A DNA stretch of 64,000 nt from Escherichia phage vB_EcoM-RPN187. The stretch lies in sequence record OL770074.2. One strand, written 5' to 3'. Positions 36,882-49,547 of this stretch are shown here, piece after piece; the stretch's first letter is position 1, and each line of letters begins with the position of its first letter. The notes under the pieces are model-generated. The model saw only the letters and a program-made list of their open reading frames with translations. It had not been told where the DNA came from and made no database searches. The position numbers and the translations under genes are program-made.

Positions 36882-37463
36882 TTATTCACCACAAAAGTTT
36901 CGGATTTGTTCCCAATTCAGAGAACGAAGATTATTACGAGAGTACTGAATTACTTCAATACCGGCTTGTTTTAGAATGTCTGCCCAATTTTCAGGAGATC
37001 GATCGTATAATTCTGCGTATACAACCTTTTTAATACCTGACTGCGTAATAGCTTTAGTGCAATCAGGACACGGAGAAAGCGTCGTATATAACGTAGCACC
37101 TTCAATAGAATTACCTTTACGAGCTGCAAACAAAATTGCGTTCAGTTCCGCATGGATTTCGTTATTAGCAGACCATGCACTATGAGCCGCTCGATGTTCT
37201 TTAGCCAAAACAAAATTATCTGCCCGTCCAAATGCCGTAGTGCCTTCTTTATGTCCAGCAACGATGACCGGACTTGGTTTATTCTTCAACCAACCATTTT
37301 CGGATGCATGTTCGCAACAGTTAACGCCACCGGCCGGTGAACCATTATATCCAGTAGAGATAATGCGCCCATCTTTTTCAATGACGGCACCAACTTTCCA
37401 TGAACAACATTTTGATTCTTGAGAAATCAAATAAGCAATTTGAAGATATGTGCTAGCTTTCAT
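36882..37463 (-). CDS. cd: dCMP deaminase
   Basis: 193 aa; zinc-binding HAELNAI and SPCPDC motifs; close to T4 Cd as recalled. Confidence 0.9.
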   Translation of the reverse strand: MKASTYLQIAYLISQESKCCSWKVGAVIEKDGRIISTGYNGSPAGGVNCCEHASENGWLKNKPSPVIVAGHKEGTTAFGRADNFVLAKEHRAAHSAWSANNEIHAELNAILFAARKGNSIEGATLYTTLSPCPDCTKAITQSGIKKVVYAELYDRSPENWADILKQAGIEVIQYSRNNLRSLNWEQIRNFCGE

Positions 37464-38455
37464 TATTGAACCTTATTAATATAAGTTAACAGCTCTTTAG
37501 TTTGTTCCCAACTGATGCACGCATCGGTAACGGAAACGCCATAGGACATATTATCAGAAATTTTTTGATTTCCTTCATGTAGGAATGATTCTATCATAAT
37601 TCCTTTGACCAAATCATTAGCTGCTAAATTTTTACCAATACCAATTTGATTGCTATAACACCCATCAGCGTTTGCATGGCTACAGTCAACCATTACATAA
37701 TGATTCAGACCTAATGCACTTGCTTTGTTAGAAGCTTCTTGAATATCAGAAGAATGATAGTTCGGGCCGTTGGTCCCACCACGCAATACGATATGCGTAT
37801 TCTGATTACCTTCAGCTTCAACAATGCCTACAGTACCATCGACGTCCATACCCATATACCGATGAGGCCAGGCGGCACTATACATCGCGTCTGTAGCTAC
37901 TTTAATAGAACCATTGGTTGCGTTCTTGAAGCCTACGCACATCGGTAGACCTGAAGCAATTTCACGATGTGTCTGACTTTCAGTCGTACGGGCGCCAATA
38001 GCAACCCATGAGAAAATACCAGAAAGATACTTAATTGTGAATGGGTCTAATACTTCAGTTGCTAATGGAAGTCCCATACGTAGAAGTTTACGACACAATG
38101 TTCGTGCAACTATAAGACCGTGGTTCATATCAAAACTTCCGTCAAGATATGGATCATTTACAAGACCTTTCCAACCTACGGTAGTTCGAGGCTTTTCAAA
38201 ATAAACGCGCATCACTAACAGAACATTAGGAAGACGAGTTTGAAGTTCAGCCAGACGTTTGCCGTATTCAACAGCAGCAATAGGGTCATGAATTGAACAA
38301 GGACCTACAACAATAAGTTTGCGTGGGTCTTCACCGTTCATAATCGAATTAACTTGTTCGCGATGAGAAGCCACTTGTGATGCGTAAGCTTCCGACAAAG
38401 GAATAATCTCAGCCAGTTCTTTTGGAGAAATAAGTTTTCTGATGACAGGTAACAT
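37463..38455 (-). CDS. 3-deoxy-D-arabino-heptulosonate-7-phosphate (DAHP) synthase, class I (AroG/AroF/AroH-like)
   Basis: 330 aa; GPCSIHD, RVYFEKPRTTVGWKGL, AIGARTTESQ, HIVLRGG, ESFLHEGNQ and SVTDACISW blocks match E. coli AroG as recalled, including the metal/catalytic Cys, His, Glu, Asp; stop overlaps the cd start (TAATG). Confidence 0.85.
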   Translation of the reverse strand: MLPVIRKLISPKELAEIIPLSEAYASQVASHREQVNSIMNGEDPRKLIVVGPCSIHDPIAAVEYGKRLAELQTRLPNVLLVMRVYFEKPRTTVGWKGLVNDPYLDGSFDMNHGLIVARTLCRKLLRMGLPLATEVLDPFTIKYLSGIFSWVAIGARTTESQTHREIASGLPMCVGFKNATNGSIKVATDAMYSAAWPHRYMGMDVDGTVGIVEAEGNQNTHIVLRGGTNGPNYHSSDIQEASNKASALGLNHYVMVDCSHANADGCYSNQIGIGKNLAANDLVKGIMIESFLHEGNQKISDNMSYGVSVTDACISWEQTKELLTYINKVQ

Positions 38456-38575
38456 AACAATCCTTAGGAGATATAAACAGATTCTGATTCAACAATACCT
38501 TTAACCGGATTAGACAGGCTAAGTTAGTAGTGCTCAGATTTATGACCATTCTCGATAGTAATTAGATAACTCTCA

Positions 38576-38812
38576 TTATAGTGTTCCATATACTCGAGTT
38601 GCTTCAACGAGACCATCACTGCCTAATTTAAGATTAGTAATTTGGTCACCATCTTTAGGATTAACGATTATGAGAAAAGAACGAGGAGATTCTTGAATAA
38701 CTCGTAATGTTGCATCCTGGAAACGTTCAGACACTTTATTGATGAGTGTTTGAGCGAATTCTTTTACTTTAATCTGAAATTCGTGTACTGTAATTGGATT
38801 TTCACTTAGCAT
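38576..38812 (-). CDS. hypothetical protein
   Basis: 78 aa; ATG preceded by GAGGA; first gene after an early promoter. Confidence 0.45.
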   Translation of the reverse strand: MLSENPITVHEFQIKVKEFAQTLINKVSERFQDATLRVIQESPRSFLIIVNPKDGDQITNLKLGSDGLVEATRVYGTL

Positions 38813-38838: not shown

Positions 38839-38870
38839 TTATAGTATCACAACTCCACCATGTTGTAAAC
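38839..38870 (-). promoter_or_regulatory. T4 early-type promoter driving ORF 38576..38812, DAHP synthase and cd
   Basis: Reverse complement reads gGTTTACaacatggtggagttgtgaTACTATAAc. Confidence 0.5.

Positions 38871-39551: not shown

Positions 39552-39552
<1 letters not shown>
39361..39552 (-). CDS. hypothetical acidic protein
   Basis: 63 aa; ATG start; overlaps neighbours by a few nt. Confidence 0.4.
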
Positions 39553-40638
<1,086 letters not shown>

Positions 40639-40639
<1 letters not shown>

Positions 40640-40938
40640 TATTTTATTCCTAAGAAAATTTCAAGAATACGAATGTTATGCTCGCGCCGGTCTTTATTAA
40701 TTTCAGCAACGTTTTTATTAATTGACGTACTTCTAACGTTTGAAGAAATAAATTTAATCATATGACTTTTGAGTTGTTGCAAATCCAACCCTTTTTCTTT
40801 AGCAGCTTTACGAAGAGCTTTACCTGCTTCATCTAGTGCCTTTGCTGCATCTTTGTCATAATTGCCAAGTGACATTCCACGGCAGATATCAATATACTCA
40901 TCAGACCGTTTGATGTAATTCTCTAGTAATGTTTTCAT
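40639..40938 (-). CDS. hypothetical protein
   Basis: 99 aa; ATG start; lysine-rich. Confidence 0.4.
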
Positions 40939-40995
40939 TTAGATTTCCTCAATTATCCATAGGAGCATTATACTCTGCTCCTGAGAGTTTGTAAA

Positions 40996-41220
40996 CTATT
41001 TTACTAAAGATTCAATATACTCGTGAAGAGCTTTAGTCGCTACTGCCCACTTATTCTGATATTCATTTTTCAGATTAGCACGAGACTGAACTAACAATCG
41101 GTCATTAGTCGGAGGCAAAGATTCTAATCGTTGAATCTGGCGCCCATAAATCATAGCCGCCATTTCAGATTCATAGATAAGCCCTTTAATGTATTCATGC
41201 TGTTCTTTAGTCATTGGCAT
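40996..41220 (-). CDS. hypothetical protein
   Basis: 74 aa; ATG start. Confidence 0.4.
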   Translation of the reverse strand: MPMTKEQHEYIKGLIYESEMAAMIYGRQIQRLESLPPTNDRLLVQSRANLKNEYQNKWAVATKALHEYIESLVK

Positions 41221-41501
41221 TTTTCCTCTTTTAAACCACTACGATAATAACATATCATAGTCTTCTGGTCATGTACGTATCTTTTTACGTCGTTTAACCA
41301 GATACGAAATTCTTGAGAGTCTTCAAATGGCATTCCAACCCACGGATTACCATCAATAACCTTTACTTGCCATTTCTGGTTATATTCAACAATAGATTCA
41401 GGCCATGGCGGATGTAAAGTTTCTTTAGGGCTTAAGGGCACATCCTGGGCACATCCGGCTAAAATGCCAATAGATAATACAACTGCAGTTAATTTAATCA
41501 T
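41211..41501 (-). CDS. outer-membrane spanin lipoprotein (o-spanin, T4 pseT.2-like)
   Basis: 96 aa; signal peptide with lipobox ILAGC, Pro-rich mature part with C-terminal Cys. Confidence 0.6.
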   Translation of the reverse strand: MIKLTAVVLSIGILAGCAQDVPLSPKETLHPPWPESIVEYNQKWQVKVIDGNPWVGMPFEDSQEFRIWLNDVKRYVHDQKTMICYYRSGLKEEKCQ

Positions 41502-41854
41502 TCTGAGAGCTTCCTGAGGTCTTCTGCAAAGGAATCGAAGGACCTGTTGATTTGTTTTTCGACCAATCCTGGTTTACTTGCCACCACGTTCTTCTTCTTC
41601 GAATCCTTACGGAGCTTTTCATTTTCGGCCTTAAGTTGGTCAACTAAAACACGGTTCTTATAAGTCATTTCTTCGATTGACTGATATTGAACCTTGAAGT
41701 CGTCTAATACTTTAGCATTGTTTTTAGCAGTCTCTTTAACAGAAGCTAATTCATTATTCAACGAATCAACTTTGTTGTTTAAGACAACTATTGTTAGCGT
41801 AGAAACTAGAGCAAAAGCTGCTACCATAGCATAAATCGGATTTACTTTAAGCAT
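41498..41854 (-). CDS. inner-membrane spanin (i-spanin, T4 pseT.3-like)
   Basis: 118 aa; N-terminal transmembrane segment AMVAAFALVSTLTIVVL then coiled-coil-like charged region; directly precedes the o-spanin. Confidence 0.6.
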   Translation of the reverse strand: MLKVNPIYAMVAAFALVSTLTIVVLNNKVDSLNNELASVKETAKNNAKVLDDFKVQYQSIEEMTYKNRVLVDQLKAENEKLRKDSKKKNVVASKPGLVEKQINRSFDSFAEDLRKLSE

Positions 41855-42342
41855 GTTTTAATAATCTCAATGATTTCATCTCGGGATAATCCATTGATAA
41901 GAACGGTTTTCGGACCATCACACTGGATTTTGTACGATTCAAACAATACACACAACTCTTCTGCTGTATGATACGGACTTGAAATTCCGAGGCGATTGAA
42001 TTTGTCGGTAAGAGGGTCGCAAATAATGTAGAATTTTATACCTGAGATATGTACGTTTGGTTGACTAATATTAATGAACACATTAGCGTCATATTTAGTC
42101 AAATTGTTTTGAAGAAATTCTACCATGGCATTAACTGCTTCCGGCATCGCTTCACGTTTCTCTTCGGTGTAACGTGTTGAATATTCCTTTTGCTTTAACT
42201 TCTTTTTAGCATTTTTCGCTAGAGTAGTACGAAGGTCCGTAAGATAACCAACTGCACGGCCTTTCTTAAAGACTCGGATTCCATCTGTAGAATCACCAAA
42301 TGCTGCCACAACCATATCGTTAGTAATCAATTGCATATTCAT
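41842..42342 (-). CDS. alc: Alc, inhibitor of host transcription
   Basis: 166 aa from ATG 42342 (MNMQLITNDMVVAAFGDS...) matches T4 Alc as recalled; the ORF-track extension to 42405 reads through the promoter. Confidence 0.75.
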   Translation of the reverse strand: MNMQLITNDMVVAAFGDSTDGIRVFKKGRAVGYLTDLRTTLAKNAKKKLKQKEYSTRYTEEKREAMPEAVNAMVEFLQNNLTKYDANVFINISQPNVHISGIKFYIICDPLTDKFNRLGISSPYHTAEELCVLFESYKIQCDGPKTVLINGLSRDEIIEIIKTCLK

Positions 42343-42371
42343 AATTTTCTCCTCGTGTTGTTGATAAAAGC

Positions 42372-42402
42372 CATAGTAACACCTTCCTTGGTGTTTGTAA
42401 AC
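42372..42402 (-). promoter_or_regulatory. T4 early-type promoter for alc
   Basis: Reverse complement reads gGTTTACaaacaccaaggaaggtgtTACTATGG, then GAGGAG and the ATG. Confidence 0.5.
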
Positions 42403-42404
42403 CA

Positions 42405-43538
<1,134 letters not shown>

Positions 43539-43553
43539 TCAGTTAGTTTTTTT

Positions 43554-43585
43554 AAATTGTACCACAATCCTTGTGGCATGTAAAC
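43554..43585 (-). promoter_or_regulatory. T4 early-type promoter for rnlA
   Basis: Reverse complement reads aGTTTACatgccacaaggattgtgGTACAATtt, then GAGGA and the ATG. Confidence 0.5.
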
Positions 43586-43995
43586 TACTTTTTCTTATGT
43601 TGGATATTCCAAGGCGGGTTGAACTTTTTGATAAAAAGCGGTTCTTCAAGGTCCATTGTTGCGATGGTCATTGAACCAAGTTCGTTGGTGACTGAAAGGT
43701 CAAAACATTGGCGGGCCCAGAATTCAACCTTTTTGCCTTGCATTAAGGCATCCAAAATCATAAGTGATTTTCTTGAATCTGAAGTCTGGTCTTTTCGATT
43801 TATGGCTGTTCGATAATAGTTAATGCGTTTCTTTAAATTCTTGGTTTTACCAATATACACAAGCTCGTCATCTATAGCAATAGCGTATATGACATTTTTC
43901 TTATTAGGGACATCAACTGTTTTAATTGTTGCATCTTCTAATAGCTCCAATTCTGTATATTTAATAAAGGAATATTCGGCGGCAATATCTTTCAT
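43585..43995 (-). CDS. denA: endonuclease II (DenA)
   Basis: 136 aa; same length and position as T4 DenA; GIY-YIG-like VYAIAIDDELVYIGKTKNLKKR. Confidence 0.8.
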   Translation of the reverse strand: MKDIAAEYSFIKYTELELLEDATIKTVDVPNKKNVIYAIAIDDELVYIGKTKNLKKRINYYRTAINRKDQTSDSRKSLMILDALMQGKKVEFWARQCFDLSVTNELGSMTIATMDLEEPLFIKKFNPPWNIQHKKK

Positions 43996-44003
43996 AATAA
44001 AGT

Positions 44004-44017
44004 GGGACCGAAGTCCC
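44004..44017 (-). other. stem-loop GGGAC-UUCG-GUCCC between nrdB and denA
   Basis: gggaccgaagtccc read directly; lies between the nrdB stop and the denA start. Confidence 0.35.
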
Positions 44018-44021
44018 GTCC

Positions 44022-45200
44022 TTAGAAATATTTTTTGTATGAATTGATTACATTTTGGTCTACATCATTATCAATTTGTGCGACAAGATAAGAACTGATT
44101 TCAACTTCCTGAGGAGCTGCTTGAACTAAATCAGAGTTCAGATATTCACGAATCCAAGGATACGGATGCTTGGTCGGAGCATCAGTGATTGGGCAGGGTA
44201 AACCACACTGTTTCATACGAGACACAGTCAAGTAATCAACAAAAGCACACATACTCTGCGTATTGATACCTGGACATGTACCGTCTTTAAAGAGGTGTGC
44301 AGCCCATTCCTTCTCTTGACTATTTACTTCCATAAAAATGCCAACTGCTTCTTGTTCACATTCTTTAGCAATTTGAACCCACTCATCACCGTCAGTACCA
44401 GATTGAAGTTGACGGATAATGTACTGAGTACCCTTTAGGTGGAGTTGTTCGTCACGAGCAATGAACTTCATAATCTTTGCATTACCTTCCATAATTTCCA
44501 TATTTTTATGGAAGTTGAAAGTACATGCGAAAGATACATAAAAACGAATAGCTTCCAAGGCGTTAATTACATGAAGGCAAAGATAAAGAGATTTCATTAG
44601 CTCACGCTTCCAATATGTCTCATGCTCAATAGCATCTTCAATAACGTCTTCGTCTGCATTAATTTCTTTTTGGTATTTGATATCAGCTTTAGCGTTTTCC
44701 CAATAACGAGTTTTAACCAGAACATCATCGTAATATTTACCTATTGATTCAGCTCGTTTCATGATTGCTTCGTCTAATACAATCTCATCAAATACCTTAG
44801 ACGGATCGGTATAAAGATTTCGCATAATATGAGTATACGAACGAGAGTGAATAGTTTCGCTGAATGTCCATGTTGCAACCCACGTATCTAATGAAGGGTC
44901 AGAAATCAGTGCCATAAGTACCGCAGATGGGGCTCTGCCTTGGATAGAATCTAATAATGATTGATACTTAAGATTGTTTGTAAAGATGTCCTGTTGGAAC
45001 TGAGGAAGCTTATTGAACTGCGCAGAGTCCAACATCAAGTTTACCTCTTCGGGGCGCCAGAAAAACGAGAGCTGACGTTCAATAAGTTCTTCAAATACTC
45101 GATGTCGTTGAATATCATAACGAGCTAAACCTAATCCAGAACCAAAGAACATCGGTTCATTCAAAACATCAACTTGTTGTGTGTTAAAAACTGTACTCAT
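44022..45200 (-). CDS. nrdB: ribonucleotide reductase small subunit NrdB (intron-less)
   Basis: ORF-track start 45212 is GTG; ATG at 45200 gives MSTVFNTQQVDVLNEPMFFG, matching the T4 NrdB N-terminus as recalled; contiguous reading frame. Confidence 0.9.
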   Translation of the reverse strand: MSTVFNTQQVDVLNEPMFFGSGLGLARYDIQRHRVFEELIERQLSFFWRPEEVNLMLDSAQFNKLPQFQQDIFTNNLKYQSLLDSIQGRAPSAVLMALISDPSLDTWVATWTFSETIHSRSYTHIMRNLYTDPSKVFDEIVLDEAIMKRAESIGKYYDDVLVKTRYWENAKADIKYQKEINADEDVIEDAIEHETYWKRELMKSLYLCLHVINALEAIRFYVSFACTFNFHKNMEIMEGNAKIMKFIARDEQLHLKGTQYIIRQLQSGTDGDEWVQIAKECEQEAVGIFMEVNSQEKEWAAHLFKDGTCPGINTQSMCAFVDYLTVSRMKQCGLPCPITDAPTKHPYPWIREYLNSDLVQAAPQEVEISSYLVAQIDNDVDQNVINSYKKYF

Positions 45201-45252
45201 TATATTTCTCACTTAGTTTAACTCATCCATGAGTAAATTATAATCAAAAGTC

Positions 45253-47508
45253 TTAAAGCTTACAAGCAGAACAATCTTCAGCTTTAGGTGTTTCTAATTC
45301 ATAGTCATCTGTACCTGACCCATCACGAGTGTTATGATAGTAGAGATTTTTTCCGCCAAAGTACCAGAAGTAAAGCAGATCGTCAAGCATTACTGACATT
45401 GGCACTTTACCTTTCTCAAATACCGCAGGGTCATAGTAAGTATTAGCAGAAGCAGATTGGCACACCCATTTCAACATGATAGCAACTTGGGTCAAATAAG
45501 GTTTATTACCTTTCTTAGCAAGTTTCCACGCGTAGTCGTAAAGACTCATGTTATGTTCTATATTAGGAACAACCTGACGGAAGTTGCCTTCTTTAGATTC
45601 TTTAATACTTACTGGACCGCGTGGGGGCTCAATCCCGTTTGTAGAGTTTGATACTTGACTGCTTGACTCACAAGGCATGAGTGCAGACAACGTTGAGTTA
45701 CGAATTCCATGTTCTTTGAGTTCAGCTCGAAGTTCTTCCCAGTCACAGACGTAGTTCGGGGCTGCGATTTGGTCAATCTTTTTATTGTACCAGTCGATAG
45801 GTAATTCGCCTCTAGACCATTTAGTGTCTGAATAATACTCGCAACATCCTTTTTCTTTGGCGAGTTTGATTGAAGCTTTGATAAGGCCATATTGCAATCT
45901 CTCAAACAATTCATGAGTCAAATCGTTAGCGTCTTCATATGAAGCAAAGTTAGAAGTTAACCATGCAGCATAGTTCGTCACACCAACACCGAGGTTTCGA
46001 CGCTTTTTAGCTTTTAAAGCTTCTGGAACCGGATAATCTTGATAGTCTAACAGGTTATCAAGTGCACGAACTTGGACTTCTGCCAATTCATTAATTTTAT
46101 CTTGGTCTTGCCAATCAAATTTATCTAATACAAAAGCAGATAATGTGCATAAACCAATTTCAGCATCAGGACCATTCACATCATTAGTTGGAATAGCGAT
46201 TTCACAACATAAGTTACTCTGACGAATTGGAGCTTTTTCACGAATAAATGGAGTATAGTTATTAGTGTTATCAACAAACTGTGGATAAATTCGAGCGGTG
46301 CCAGAACGTTCAGTCATGAACAATTCAAAGAGTTCTAGTGCTTTGATTCTTTTCTTTCTGATTGTCGGGTCTTTTTCAGCTTTCTCATAAAGCTCACGGA
46401 ATTTATCTTGATCTTCAAAGAACGAGTAGTATAGTTCGCCTGACATTTCGTGAGGGCTAAATAAAGTAATATAATCATTTTTACCAAGGCGTTCCATCAT
46501 GAGGTCATTAATCTGAATTCCGTAGTCCATATGTCGAATACGGTTTTCATCCACGCCTTTGTTATTTTTCAGAACTAATAGGTTCTCTACTTCTAAGTGC
46601 CACATTGGATAATAAGCTGTAGCAGCACCACCACGAATACCACCTTGAGAACAAGATTTTACTGCAGTTTGGAAATGTTTCCAGAATGGAATAACACCCG
46701 TATGTCGAACTTCACCCATACCGATCTTAGAACCTTCTGCACGAAGCATACCAACGTTGATACCGATACCAGCTCGTTTAGAAATATATTCAATAATTGA
46801 TGCTGAAGTTTTGTTAATAGATTTTAACGAATCACCAGCTTCAATAACTACACAACTAGAGAACTGACGAGTTGGAGTACGAGCACCTGCCATAATTGGG
46901 GTAGGCAATGAAACTTGATGAGTAGAAACGGCATCATAAAAACGAATAATATGTTTCAAACGGTCATGAGTTTCGTCTTGGTGTAAGGCCATACCAATAG
47001 CCATGATAGCAAACTGTGGAGTTTCATAAATCTTCCCAGTTGTTTTATCTTTAACTAGATATTTTTCTTTAAGCTGCATAGCACCAGCATAAGTCAGGTC
47101 AAAGTCTCGTTCATGTTTAATCTGTGAATCGAGATAAATGATTTCTTCTGCTGAATATTGAGACAACAACTCAGGGTCGTATTTACCTTCATTAACACAG
47201 TAAGAAATATGGTCGATAAAAGCAGGCGGTTCAAACTGCCCGTATACATCTTTACGAAGTGCAAACATTAATCCTTTAGCGGCGACATACTGATAATCAG
47301 GTTCTTCGACAGAAATCAAGTTAGCTGCAACTTTAATACAAATCTTCTGAATATCTTTGGTGCTCATCCCATCGACAAGATGGGTCTTAATTTCTTCGTA
47401 TAATTCATATGGGTCGATTTGTGTTCCTTCACATTGCCAAGTTAAAACTTGAATAATTTTCTGTGCATCAAAATTTTGAGATACACCACTGCTCTTAGTT
47501 ACTTGCAT
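45253..47508 (-). CDS. nrdA: ribonucleotide reductase large subunit NrdA
   Basis: 751 aa; ATP-cone N-terminus and active-site NLCCEI; C-terminal CSACKL. Confidence 0.95.
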   Translation of the reverse strand: MQVTKSSGVSQNFDAQKIIQVLTWQCEGTQIDPYELYEEIKTHLVDGMSTKDIQKICIKVAANLISVEEPDYQYVAAKGLMFALRKDVYGQFEPPAFIDHISYCVNEGKYDPELLSQYSAEEIIYLDSQIKHERDFDLTYAGAMQLKEKYLVKDKTTGKIYETPQFAIMAIGMALHQDETHDRLKHIIRFYDAVSTHQVSLPTPIMAGARTPTRQFSSCVVIEAGDSLKSINKTSASIIEYISKRAGIGINVGMLRAEGSKIGMGEVRHTGVIPFWKHFQTAVKSCSQGGIRGGAATAYYPMWHLEVENLLVLKNNKGVDENRIRHMDYGIQINDLMMERLGKNDYITLFSPHEMSGELYYSFFEDQDKFRELYEKAEKDPTIRKKRIKALELFELFMTERSGTARIYPQFVDNTNNYTPFIREKAPIRQSNLCCEIAIPTNDVNGPDAEIGLCTLSAFVLDKFDWQDQDKINELAEVQVRALDNLLDYQDYPVPEALKAKKRRNLGVGVTNYAAWLTSNFASYEDANDLTHELFERLQYGLIKASIKLAKEKGCCEYYSDTKWSRGELPIDWYNKKIDQIAAPNYVCDWEELRAELKEHGIRNSTLSALMPCESSSQVSNSTNGIEPPRGPVSIKESKEGNFRQVVPNIEHNMSLYDYAWKLAKKGNKPYLTQVAIMLKWVCQSASANTYYDPAVFEKGKVPMSVMLDDLLYFWYFGGKNLYYHNTRDGSGTDDYELETPKAEDCSACKL

Positions 47509-47552
47509 ACATTCCTCAGTACAGGTTGGTAGACATTACTCCAAACGGGATA

Positions 47553-47575
47553 GTATTTATCCCGTTAATTTATTA
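47553..47575. other. 7-bp inverted repeat in the nrdA 5' leader region
   Basis: acgggat-N7-atcccgt read directly upstream of the nrdA RBS; function unknown. Confidence 0.25.
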
Positions 47576-47595
47576 TACACTTTTAAACTGAAGCG

Positions 47596-47850
47596 TTAAT
47601 TATCCTCAGCAATAATTTCTTCGTATTCTTTAGGTGTCAAGACTGTGATATCGAAATAAACCAACGGTTCTTTTTCTATACCGTAACCACCACAAAATTC
47701 ACGATATTCATAAATTCGTTCGTGTGAATAGCAAATAAATCGTTCACCTTTAACTGTGATTTCACTATTAGGTGAAGGGATATCCAGTTCACTTGGATTT
47801 TTCATTTCAAAAATTGTGGTGCCATATGAATTAATAAAACGTAAAATCAT
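47596..47850 (-). CDS. hypothetical protein (T4 nrdA.1 position)
   Basis: 84 aa; ATG start. Confidence 0.4.
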   Translation of the reverse strand: MILRFINSYGTTIFEMKNPSELDIPSPNSEITVKGERFICYSHERIYEYREFCGGYGIEKEPLVYFDITVLTPKEYEEIIAEDN

Positions 47851-47851
47851 T

Positions 47852-49547
<1,696 letters not shown>

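Follow-up and report, generated by a model that had tools for sequence, protein, structure and literature searches.

A Phage DAHP Synthase Whose Feedback-Inhibitor Site Is Rebuilt Across a Clade of T4-Like Phages

Escherichia phage vB_EcoM-RPN187 (record OL770074.2, of which a stretch of 64,000 nucleotides, hereafter the window, was analysed) encodes an intact type I-alpha DAHP synthase in which, judging from alignments, the site that normally receives the feedback inhibitor has been systematically rebuilt, as it has been in the whole clade of related phage proteins. The presence of a DAHP synthase gene in phages is not new; the rebuilt regulatory site is the new element, and no published account of it for the phage clade was found in the literature. 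The reading that we consider probable, with some reservation, is that of an early-expressed enzyme insensitive to Phe and Tyr, which would override the host control of shikimate entry.

All the carbon that enters aromatic biosynthesis passes through DAHP synthase, a valve that bacteria shut by end-product feedback, in which Phe, Tyr or Trp occupies a pocket at the tight-dimer interface and shuts off the enzyme. To this pocket one subunit contributes its N-terminal extension and the other its residues ~146-155, 175-180 and 209-221 (AroG numbering). Asp155 of AroG is a salt-bridge residue and D6, D7 and I10 are inhibitor-site contacts; N8K and delta-Ile11 are mutants in the N-terminus of AroF. 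The Phe site has been described as formed by the N-terminal extension and the hairpin (PMC4735112), and the main chain of the inhibitor is contacted by Gln151/152 and, via its side chain, by Ser180/181 (PMC9529685). P150L abolishes the Phe inhibition of AroG, and S180F and F209A/S are feedback-resistant AroG variants (PMC9529685).

An Intact Type I-alpha Enzyme

The gene and its product were located as follows:

37463..38455, minus strand: DAHP synthase gene (type I-alpha, 330 aa; predicted to convert PEP and erythrose-4-phosphate into DAHP), an ORF with an ATG start

A sequence-only reading of the window had proposed a class I DAHP synthase of 330 aa here, with its Cys, His, Glu and Asp metal and catalytic positions in place, and both claims were borne out. 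The ORF is exactly that, is the longest possible reading of its frame, and contains all the motifs then quoted (GPCSIHD, RVYFEKPRTTVGWKGL, AIGARTTESQ, HIVLRGG, ESFLHEGNQ and SVTDACISW). A longer N-terminus hidden by a miscalled start was considered and rejected, since an in-frame stop precedes the ATG by ~39 nt and the stretch that separates them contains no start codon. The family search that the same reading had suggested, against Pfam and phage genomes, gave strong matches: DAHP_synth_1 (PF00793) with E=3e-74 and 249.8 bits over a cut-off of 25.5, the aroFGH equivalog TIGR00034 of NCBIfam with 425.9 bits over 173.2, NF009395 with 453.4 over 343, and the profile phrog_5045, which spans residues 1-330 with E=3.1e-181. 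The isozyme-specific models for AroG (NF006723, 362.2 for a cut-off of 568) and AroH (NF009396, 384 for a cut-off of 463) were not passed.

The four metal ligands (C53, H260, E289 and D311) and the ten residues binding PEP and E4P (R83, K88, P89, R90, T91, G154, A155, R156, K177 and R225) each align to their AroG counterpart, and all of them are invariant in the 24 proteins of the phage clade that were compared. An AF2 model (pLDDT 91.6) superimposes on solved AroG and NmeDAH7PS structures (8E0U, 1QR7 and 4HSO) with a TM of 0.95 and an rmsd of 1.5 A, and in its (beta/alpha)8 barrel the beta6a/6b hairpin is kept, with strands at 198-203 and 209-214. By these criteria, the enzyme is probably catalytically competent. 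Nonetheless, its activity is not simply to be assumed, because single substitutions at equivalent positions of the AroF of C. glutamicum lowered activity or stability, with S188F retaining <15% of the activity and Q159A being unstable (PMC9529685).

A Rebuilt Inhibitor Pocket

Scoring the allosteric residues against AroF, AroG and AroH of E. coli, also suggested by the sequence-only reading, gave the most informative result of the analysis. The elements concerned are:

38426..38455, minus strand: shortened N-terminus, with 7 residues before the AroG L16 column (ORF bounded by the in-frame upstream stop)
38018..38047, minus strand: codons 137-146 (DPFTIKYLSG), part of the rebuilt pocket, with I141, K142 and G146 in place of AroG P150, Q151 and D155 (alignment)
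37943..37945, minus strand: codon of P171, in place of AroG S180 and AroF S181 (alignment)
37856..37858, minus strand: codon of Y200, in place of AroG F209, in the beta6a hairpin strand of the pocket (alignment)

When the 24 phage-clade proteins were compared with 95 cellular homologues, the same exchanges were found throughout. At AroG position 150 the phage proteins have Ile (23/24) where the cellular ones have Pro (88/95), at 151 Lys (23/24, with Arg in the remaining one) instead of Gln (94/95), at 155 Gly (23/24) instead of Asp (94/95), at 180 Pro in all 24 instead of Ser (93/95), and at 209 Tyr, again in all 24, instead of Phe (93/95). The N-terminus follows the same pattern: the window protein has 7 residues before the L16 column, compared with 15 in AroG, 16 in AroF and 14-16 across AroF/G/H, and the ranges of the phage clade (5-9) and of the 95 cellular homologues (13-50) do not overlap. 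The first ~9 residues are missing in the phage clade, and the positions aligned to AroG D6/D7 are absent.

Out of 329 aligned positions, only six have one residue fixed in the phage proteins and another fixed in the cellular ones (P150I, Q151K, D155G, S180P, F209Y and T223A), and five of these six clade-defining substitutions fall inside a list of 17 pocket positions (P~1e-6). Since that list was drawn up in part after the alignment had been inspected, an independent list of nine inhibitor-site residues (PMC9529685) was also used, and it contains four of the six (P~4e-6). Other features of the pocket are retained, namely D137 (AroG D146), P138 (AroF P148), L170, the Tyr-type G202 and the hairpin. 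A pocket that is merely decaying was rejected as an explanation, given that in the phage clade the rebuilt positions vary less than the protein does on average (0.40 vs 0.99 bits, P=0.003). This conservation fits a structural lock and a new ligand equally well.

The second of these options amounts to a new allosteric site, through which the enzyme would respond to a different effector, for instance an acidic or phage-specific metabolite drawn by Lys142, and shikimate entry would be tied to a signal under phage control. In its favour are the pocket positions, re-fixed and unusually conserved, the basic residue (Lys or Arg) at AroG-151 and the non-random one, Tyr, at AroG-209, each in 24/24 proteins, the persistence of the hairpin and of most hydrophobic pocket walls, and the coupled downstream cd product, annotated in T4 as an allosteric enzyme too. 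However, the phage proteins lack the N-terminal tip with which cellular enzymes close the pocket, no data indicate a candidate ligand, and packing of the dimer interface to hold the active conformation would explain the conservation equally well, so that we regard this reading as unlikely, albeit the best of the alternatives. Its more elaborate form, in which the rebuilt pocket (Ile-Lys at 141-142, Gly146, Pro171, Tyr200 and no N-terminal lid) would place shikimate entry under a phage signal, perhaps an acidic or phage-specific effector, in step with the allosteric and translationally coupled dCMP deaminase, is more doubtful still.

A further alternative is an ordinary Tyr-sensitive isozyme of the AroF type, by which the phage would just enlarge the stock of regulated DAHP synthase in its host cell. 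The best match among solved structures by sequence is indeed E. coli AroF (353 bits, vs 309 for AroG), position AroG-211 is taken by Gly202, the Tyr-type residue that AroF has there too, and many GenBank annotations read "Tyr-sensitive". These labels, however, are transferred by similarity, and the AroF residues Gln152, Ser181, Pro151 and Asp156 have all been replaced, together with the clade-wide absence of the N-terminal nine residues; substitutions at those positions yield feedback-resistant enzymes (PMC9529685). A Tyr-regulated phage enzyme is, in consequence, quite improbable. The reading of a Phe/Tyr-insensitive enzyme is the one followed below: the phage enzyme probably escapes host control, because the whole phage clade has rebuilt the pocket through which it would be shut off.

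One Old Clade Kept in Place

Whether this enzyme had been described in other Tevenvirinae was left open by the sequence-only reading, and the answer is that it had, since the gene is annotated in 212 phage records, a PHROGs family exists for it and genome papers mention it (PMC11845039, PMC8022965). These two are passing mentions, the only ones on the function of the phage synthases that were found, and the literature searched yielded no enzyme, expression or infection data for any member of the clade. All 212 matches span >=80% of the protein, and the one copy seen to be interrupted is that of phage G53, where a 55-bp duplication shifts the frame.

The source phage belongs to Mosigvirus, with the window being 97% identical in nucleotides to Mosigvirus SSE1, and the locus cd.2 - DAHPS - [cd.1] - cd is shared by Mosigvirus, Kanagawavirus, Marfavirus, Winklervirus and Bragavirus. 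The phage proteins are monophyletic in 199 of 200 NJ bootstraps; their identity to any cellular homologue is <=54% (~52% for E. coli AroF), and within the clade it goes down to 55%. The phage DAHP synthases thus form, on this phylogeny, one old clade. The GC3 of the gene (0.287) lies near the window median (~0.296) and far from that of E. coli aroF/G/H (0.50-0.57), its codon usage being fully phage-like, as had been claimed from the sequence in arguing against a recent host fragment. A recent capture from the host is accordingly rejected, considering the best cellular identity of 54%, the monophyly and a GC3 that equals the phage median. The NJ sister of the clade, P0112, gave no information on the donor lineage, as it lies on an ordinary bacterial contig and the nearest cellular matches come from several phyla.

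Between genera, dN/dS is 0.14-0.26, and the phage synthase is under long-term purifying selection. Within Mosigvirus, dN/dS is indistinguishable from 1, with <=14 differences per pair, too few to show selection. The gene is dispensable, being absent from RB69 and T4 and frameshifted in G53. That dispensability, together with the ratio inside Mosigvirus, could suggest a protein with no useful catalytic role (a tolerated passenger, a drain of PEP/E4P or a partner in some non-enzymatic interaction), but the ratios between genera, the 14 catalytic residues invariant down to 55% identity, the matches over >=80% of the protein, with the one interruption seen in G53, and a locus conserved in five genera make this very hard to believe.

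Locus, Predicted Early Expression and Proposed Role

The gene lies in the early region between cd and pseT, in an interval in which T4 has only the small ORFs cd.1-cd.5, as the sequence-only reading had stated and the T4 annotation confirms. Its surroundings, from the downstream neighbour to the upstream boundary, are:

36882..37463, minus strand: cd, dCMP deaminase, directly downstream of the synthase gene (Pfam dCMP_cyt_deam_1, E=1.5e-26; SSE1 annotation)
37461..37465, minus strand: TAATG, the synthase stop overlapping the cd start, with possible translational coupling (sequence and ORF coordinates)
38461..38465, minus strand: Shine-Dalgarno-like AAGGA, 5 nt 5' of the synthase ATG (sequence)
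38576..38812, minus strand: cd.2 homologue (DUF7320), between promoter and synthase gene (PF24005, E=3e-35; phrog_1504; named cd.2 in PEi26 and RB69)
38841..38870, minus strand: putative sigma-70/T4-early-type promoter GTTTAC-17 nt-TACTAT, homologue of T4 Pe133295 (motif scan, alignment and T4 annotation)
39552..40451, minus strand: pseT, polynucleotide kinase/phosphatase, bounding the interval upstream (HAD_PNKP, E=4.8e-58, and AAA_33)

The TAATG overlap is readable in the sequence just as it had been reported. The upstream early promoter is a probable one, on the ground of homology: in an alignment comprising T4, RB69, SSE1 and AlbertHofmann, the motif matches T4 Pe133295, an annotated early promoter in the same gap between cd.3 and cd.2, even though promoter-like matches in the region (10 observed, 13.4 expected) are not above chance. 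The minus-strand scan between this promoter and the synthase gene gave no terminator-like site, and inspection by eye of the 120 nt that precede it revealed no MotA-box or late-promoter motifs. Early expression of the synthase may, from the homology of its promoter, be expected.

Put together, these elements suggest the following course of events. An ancestor of several T4-like genera would have acquired the gene once, long ago, and it would have been kept at one locus since then, where it would be transcribed early from the Pe133295 homologue, together with the dCMP deaminase gene. With the loss of the N-terminal tip and the replacement of the inhibitor-contacting Gln151 and Ser180, of the residue at the Pro150 position, of Asp155 and of Phe209, the enzyme would have become unresponsive to aromatic amino acids, and during infection carbon from PEP and E4P would keep entering the shikimate pathway at any level of end product. 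This unregulated flow would come when the host has already lost the ability to adjust the expression of its own aro genes, and chorismate flux would presumably rise. The product that matters may be pABA and folate, serving the td, frd and hydroxymethylase chemistry of the phage, or the aromatic amino acids that go into virion proteins, or yet another one. The first of these had been linked in the sequence-only reading to a thymidylate synthase and a dihydrofolate reductase in the window; both are present, although the names had been given in swapped order, dihydrofolate reductase being at 48709-49296 and thymidylate synthase at 47852-48712.

If true, a lytic phage that brings the valve without its shut-off site would override the metabolic control of the host at the level of the enzyme, beyond mere enzyme dosage. 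It would also provide a feedback-resistant type I-alpha enzyme of natural origin, already tested by evolution and relevant to the production of aromatic compounds, where variants of this kind are obtained by mutating these positions. Furthermore, a question becomes testable: which shikimate product limits the growth of T-even phages, folate or the aromatic amino acids? For this, natural nulls (RB69 and the frameshifted G53) and carriers exist inside one genus.

As for the small neighbouring ORF, the idea that T4 cd.1 is a decayed remnant of the synthase was rejected, its similarity to it (E=11) being none; a cd.1 homologue (E=1e-10) adjoins the synthase gene in phage CHI14, which counts against that origin as well.

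Comparison with Known Enzymes

The phage enzyme has in common with E. coli AroF (PDB 6AGM/6AGL) and AroG (1KFL, 1QR7) the type I-alpha family, the fold, the metal and substrate residues and the beta6a/6b hairpin. It differs from them in that AroF Pro151, Gln152, Asp156, Ser181 and Phe210 correspond to Ile, Lys, Gly, Pro and Tyr, in having a few residues deleted close to 277 and 300, in a shorter C-terminus and in the origin of its gene, which belongs to a lytic phage and follows phage codon usage. The changes in the phage proteins fall at positions (150, 151, 180, 209 and the N-terminus) that are also altered in laboratory feedback-resistant AroG and AroF variants (P150L, D146N, S180F, F209A/S and those at Gln151), the engineering of the N-terminal domain being attributed in a citation within PMC5879953 to Zhang et al. 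2014. Unlike the laboratory ones, the phage changes are natural, combined, fixed in a clade and to different residues (Ile, Lys, Pro, Tyr and Gly), and their effect is predicted from sequence.

Among phages, ORF 64 of phiC120 (PMC8022965) is a 98.5%-identical copy of the same gene family, to which the gene of Klebsiella phage KLB31, from Kanagawavirus, a genus inside the phage clade, belongs too (PMC11845039). Both reports go no further than naming the domain and proposing a supply of aromatic amino acids (PMC11845039, PMC8022965), and contain no analysis of allosteric site, phylogeny or locus.

A functional parallel is found in a bacterium. PhzC/PA1901 of P. aeruginosa, a type IIB enzyme, has shed its allostery by aromatic amino acids and feeds a dedicated pathway regardless of feedback, its insensitivity being experimental (PMC6435475). 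The logic is the same as that proposed for the phage enzyme, for which insensitivity is predicted. Nevertheless, PhzC/PA1901 belongs to a biosynthetic cluster and to type II rather than type I-alpha, and the route was another one: PhzC lost inserted helices, whereas the phage enzyme has substituted the residues of its pocket.

A known gene in the cd-pseT region

The sequence-only reading of the window proposed an intact DAHP synthase (DAHPS) in the cd-pseT early region, and this observation is confirmed in full. The ORF is present where it was placed, as the longest reading of its frame, and contains all the motifs quoted for it.

37463-38455, minus strand: DAHP synthase ORF, ATG start, 330 codons, no longer reading of the frame possible
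38870-38841, minus strand: promoter-like GTTTAC, 17 nt spacer, TACTAT (the promoter of the sequence-only reading; scan match)
38524-38619, minus strand: 31-aa ORF with GTG start, in the cd.2-synthase gap
38409-38549, minus strand: 46-aa ORF overlapping the synthase start

The protein matches Pfam DAHP_synth_1 (E=3e-74) and the NCBIfam aroFGH equivalog TIGR00034 (425.9 bits, cut-off 173.2), and does not reach the cut-offs of the NCBIfam AroG- and AroH-specific models. Aligned to AroF, AroG and AroH of E. coli MG1655, it retains the four metal ligands and the ten residues that bind PEP/E4P, as anticipated, and these 14 positions are invariant in 24/24 cluster representatives of the phage clade. 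Its AlphaFold2 model (40-sequence alignment; pLDDT 91.6, pTM 0.91) superposes on the solved AroG and N. meningitidis DAH7PS structures with a TM of 0.95 and an rmsd of 1.5 A.

As a gene it had been known and annotated before. By tblastn it occurs in 212 phage records, 139 of them at >=95% identity (Mosigvirus) and the remainder, at 58-77%, from T4-like phages of Enterobacter, Edwardsiella, Erwinia, Serratia, Klebsiella and Proteus, apart from a few distant copies that are unrelated. Most records are labelled phospho-2-dehydro-3-deoxyheptonate aldolase or DAHP synthase, and the PHROGs family phrog_5045 (auxiliary-metabolic-gene category) corresponds to it, which answers the earlier question of whether it had been described in other Tevenvirinae. 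Two papers give it a single sentence apiece, the phiC120 genome paper (PMC8022965) and one on Klebsiella phage KLB31 (PMC11845039), and no functional study of the phage enzyme was found in the literature searched, which covers few subscription journals. DAHP synthases 35-38% identical, annotated as hypothetical, are encoded by Aeromonas phage HJ05 (OQ594355.1, L011 2899-4062) and by the human-gut 'Bacteriophage sp.' contigs MT837466 and MT838377; these are unrelated phages with other genomic contexts, and appear to represent independent acquisitions.

Gene order and expression signals

The 6 kb around the gene are 97% identical to Shigella phage SSE1 (Mosigvirus, JS09 type). Upstream lies pseT, the small ORFs in between belonging to the cd.2 (DUF7320) and cd.3 (DUF7355) families, and the gene orders compare as follows.

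T4: cd.3 - cd.2 - cd.1 - cd
RB69: cd.3 - cd.2 - cd (without synthase and cd.1)
Window: cd.3 - cd.2 - DAHPS - cd
Serratia phage CHI14: cd.3 - (cd.2) - DAHPS - cd.1 homologue - cd

In Kanagawavirus (Entb_45, PEi26), Marfavirus, Winklervirus and Bragavirus the gene is likewise directly upstream of cd, or one to two small ORFs away. T4 Cd.1 was considered as a remnant of the synthase and rejected, since the proteins have no similarity and cd.1 is thus a neighbour. In RB69, the type Mosigvirus (NC_004928, L003 5743-6503), cd abuts cd.2 and both the synthase and cd.1 are missing, which makes the synthase an accessory gene within the genus; it is present in about 139 of roughly 148 records with the cd-pseT region at >=95% nucleotide identity.

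A Shine-Dalgarno sequence (AAGGA) lies 5 nt upstream of the ATG, and the stop codon overlaps the start of the next gene, cd (dCMP deaminase), as TAATG, in agreement with the first reading. That reading also placed an early promoter at 38839-38870. The promoter scan by itself proves nothing, because its matches in the region (10) do not exceed chance expectation (13.4); however, the motif aligns with early promoter Pe133295, annotated in the cd.3/cd.2 gap of T4, with hexamers and spacer largely conserved in the window, RB69, SSE1 and AlbertHofmann. Given this alignment, and since no terminator-like site was found on the minus strand between promoter and synthase, it is reasonable to infer that the synthase gene is co-transcribed early with cd.2 and cd.

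The cd.2-synthase gap (120 nt; 38456-38620, minus strand) holds small ORFs unlike those of relatives: a 41-aa ORF is annotated there in SSE1, AlbertHofmann and APCEc01, and the 31-aa and 46-aa ORFs of the window had no family match. Between the synthase and td (window ~40500-47850 against SSE1, L001 24400-32400) the coordinate offset shrinks by ~625 nt. The gene for the SSE1 HNH homing endonuclease is of nearly this length (636 nt, L001 31452-32087), suggesting that the window lacks this mobile gene.

A rebuilt inhibitor site

The inhibitor site of type I-alpha enzymes is built from an extension at the N-terminus together with a beta-hairpin, at the tight-dimer interface (PMC4735112). In AroG and AroF, main-chain binding of Phe/Tyr falls to Gln151/152 and Ser180/181, and an Asp155 salt bridge holds the site; P150L and D146N abolish inhibition, and S180F, L175D, L179A, F209A/S and V221A confer feedback resistance (PMC9529685). 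Scored against AroF, AroG and AroH, the phage proteins differ clade-wide: AroG positions 150, 151, 155, 180 and 209 are Ile, Lys, Gly, Pro and Tyr in 23-24/24 of them, whereas Pro, Gln, Asp, Ser and Phe occupy them in 88-94 of 95 cellular homologues. The N-terminus is also shorter, with 5-9 residues before the AroG-L16 column against 13-50 in the cellular set, the ranges being disjoint. Contacts in this N-terminal part include those of AroG D6, D7 and I10, and the AroF mutants N8K and delta-Ile11 map to it. The clade was defined on cluster representatives, several from unannotated assemblies, many of them contigs of ~170 kb and some short.

Only 6 of 329 aligned positions are fixed differently between phage and cellular groups. 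Five fall within our own 17-position pocket list (P~1e-6), four within the independent nine-residue list of PMC9529685 (P~4e-6), and the sixth, T223A, is on the hairpin. Within the phage clade the pocket varies less (0.40 bits) than the protein does on average (0.99 bits; P=0.003), so that simple decay was rejected in favour of a site rebuilt and then held. As far as the literature was searched, this remodelling is undescribed, and with it an ordinary annotation becomes a specific hypothesis that can be tested cheaply.

From these sequence features we infer the activity, feedback insensitivity and timing of the enzyme, and consider it fairly probable that an early, active, feedback-insensitive synthase sustains shikimate entry: expressed early and without response to aromatic amino acids, it would continue to channel PEP and E4P into the infected cell's shikimate pathway. 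The unregulated DAH7PS PhzC, a type IIB enzyme feeding phenazine synthesis, sets a precedent for this logic (PMC6435475). Since single substitutions at equivalent positions lower activity or stability in C. glutamicum AroF (PMC9529685), compensation in the phage enzyme must be assumed. As the main alternative, the new, conserved pocket may be a binding site for another effector, which we regard as possible, if rather improbable. An ordinary Tyr-sensitive AroF-type enzyme, the label used by many records, is less likely still, because the Tyr-contacting residues are gone.

For the feedback-insensitive enzyme, candidate uses of the extra chorismate are pABA and folate to serve td, frd and the hydroxymethylase chemistry of the phage, aromatic amino acids to build virion protein, or others; the conserved adjacency to cd weakly supports the nucleotide/folate reading. 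The window does contain both DHFR (48709-49296) and thymidylate synthase (47852-48712), with their names exchanged in the first reading.

Selection, dispensability and origin

Comparisons between genera give a dN/dS of 0.14-0.26 at saturated dS, and this selection signal makes a functionless passenger very unlikely. Within Mosigvirus the ratio is uninformative, with too few changes. The few amino-acid differences between alleles of this genus cluster at the very N-terminus (38437-38449, codons 3-7: VIRK, IVGK, VVRK, VTRK) and at about 37651-37665 (codons 264-268, after the His260 region: ADGCY/AAGHY), which may be the reason for within-genus values that are high yet statistically empty.

The gene is dispensable, as RB69 and T4 lack it and the copy of Escherichia phage vB_EcoM_G53 (MK327943.1, L016 301-1348, aligned to 37463-38455) is frameshifted. 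There, a perfect 55-bp tandem duplication shifts the frame after about residue 248, with loss of His260, Glu289 and Asp311; the record enters the region as a misc_feature with no CDS, and the copy may be a natural null, or else an artefact of assembly.

The closest cellular proteins reach only 50-54% identity and belong to several phyla (for enterobacterial AroF, ~52%), and the phage synthases form a single clade in 199/200 NJ bootstraps. The GC3 of the gene (0.287) is at the median of the window ORFs, E. coli aro genes having 0.50-0.57, and a codon-usage likelihood test places it squarely within the window's own genes, bearing out the view that it is no recent host fragment. The phages gained it in one old acquisition, after which it descended vertically and was occasionally lost. 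Beside the phage clade, the NJ tree joins a bacterial DAHP synthase, P0112 (JGI metagenome contig Ga0495607_0000243, L017 8001-9083), with a long N-terminus and a pocket that is also non-canonical (Ala, Gly, Pro and His at AroG 150, 151, 180 and 209); its neighbours are ordinary chromosomal genes (uvrC, TRAP and ABC transporters).
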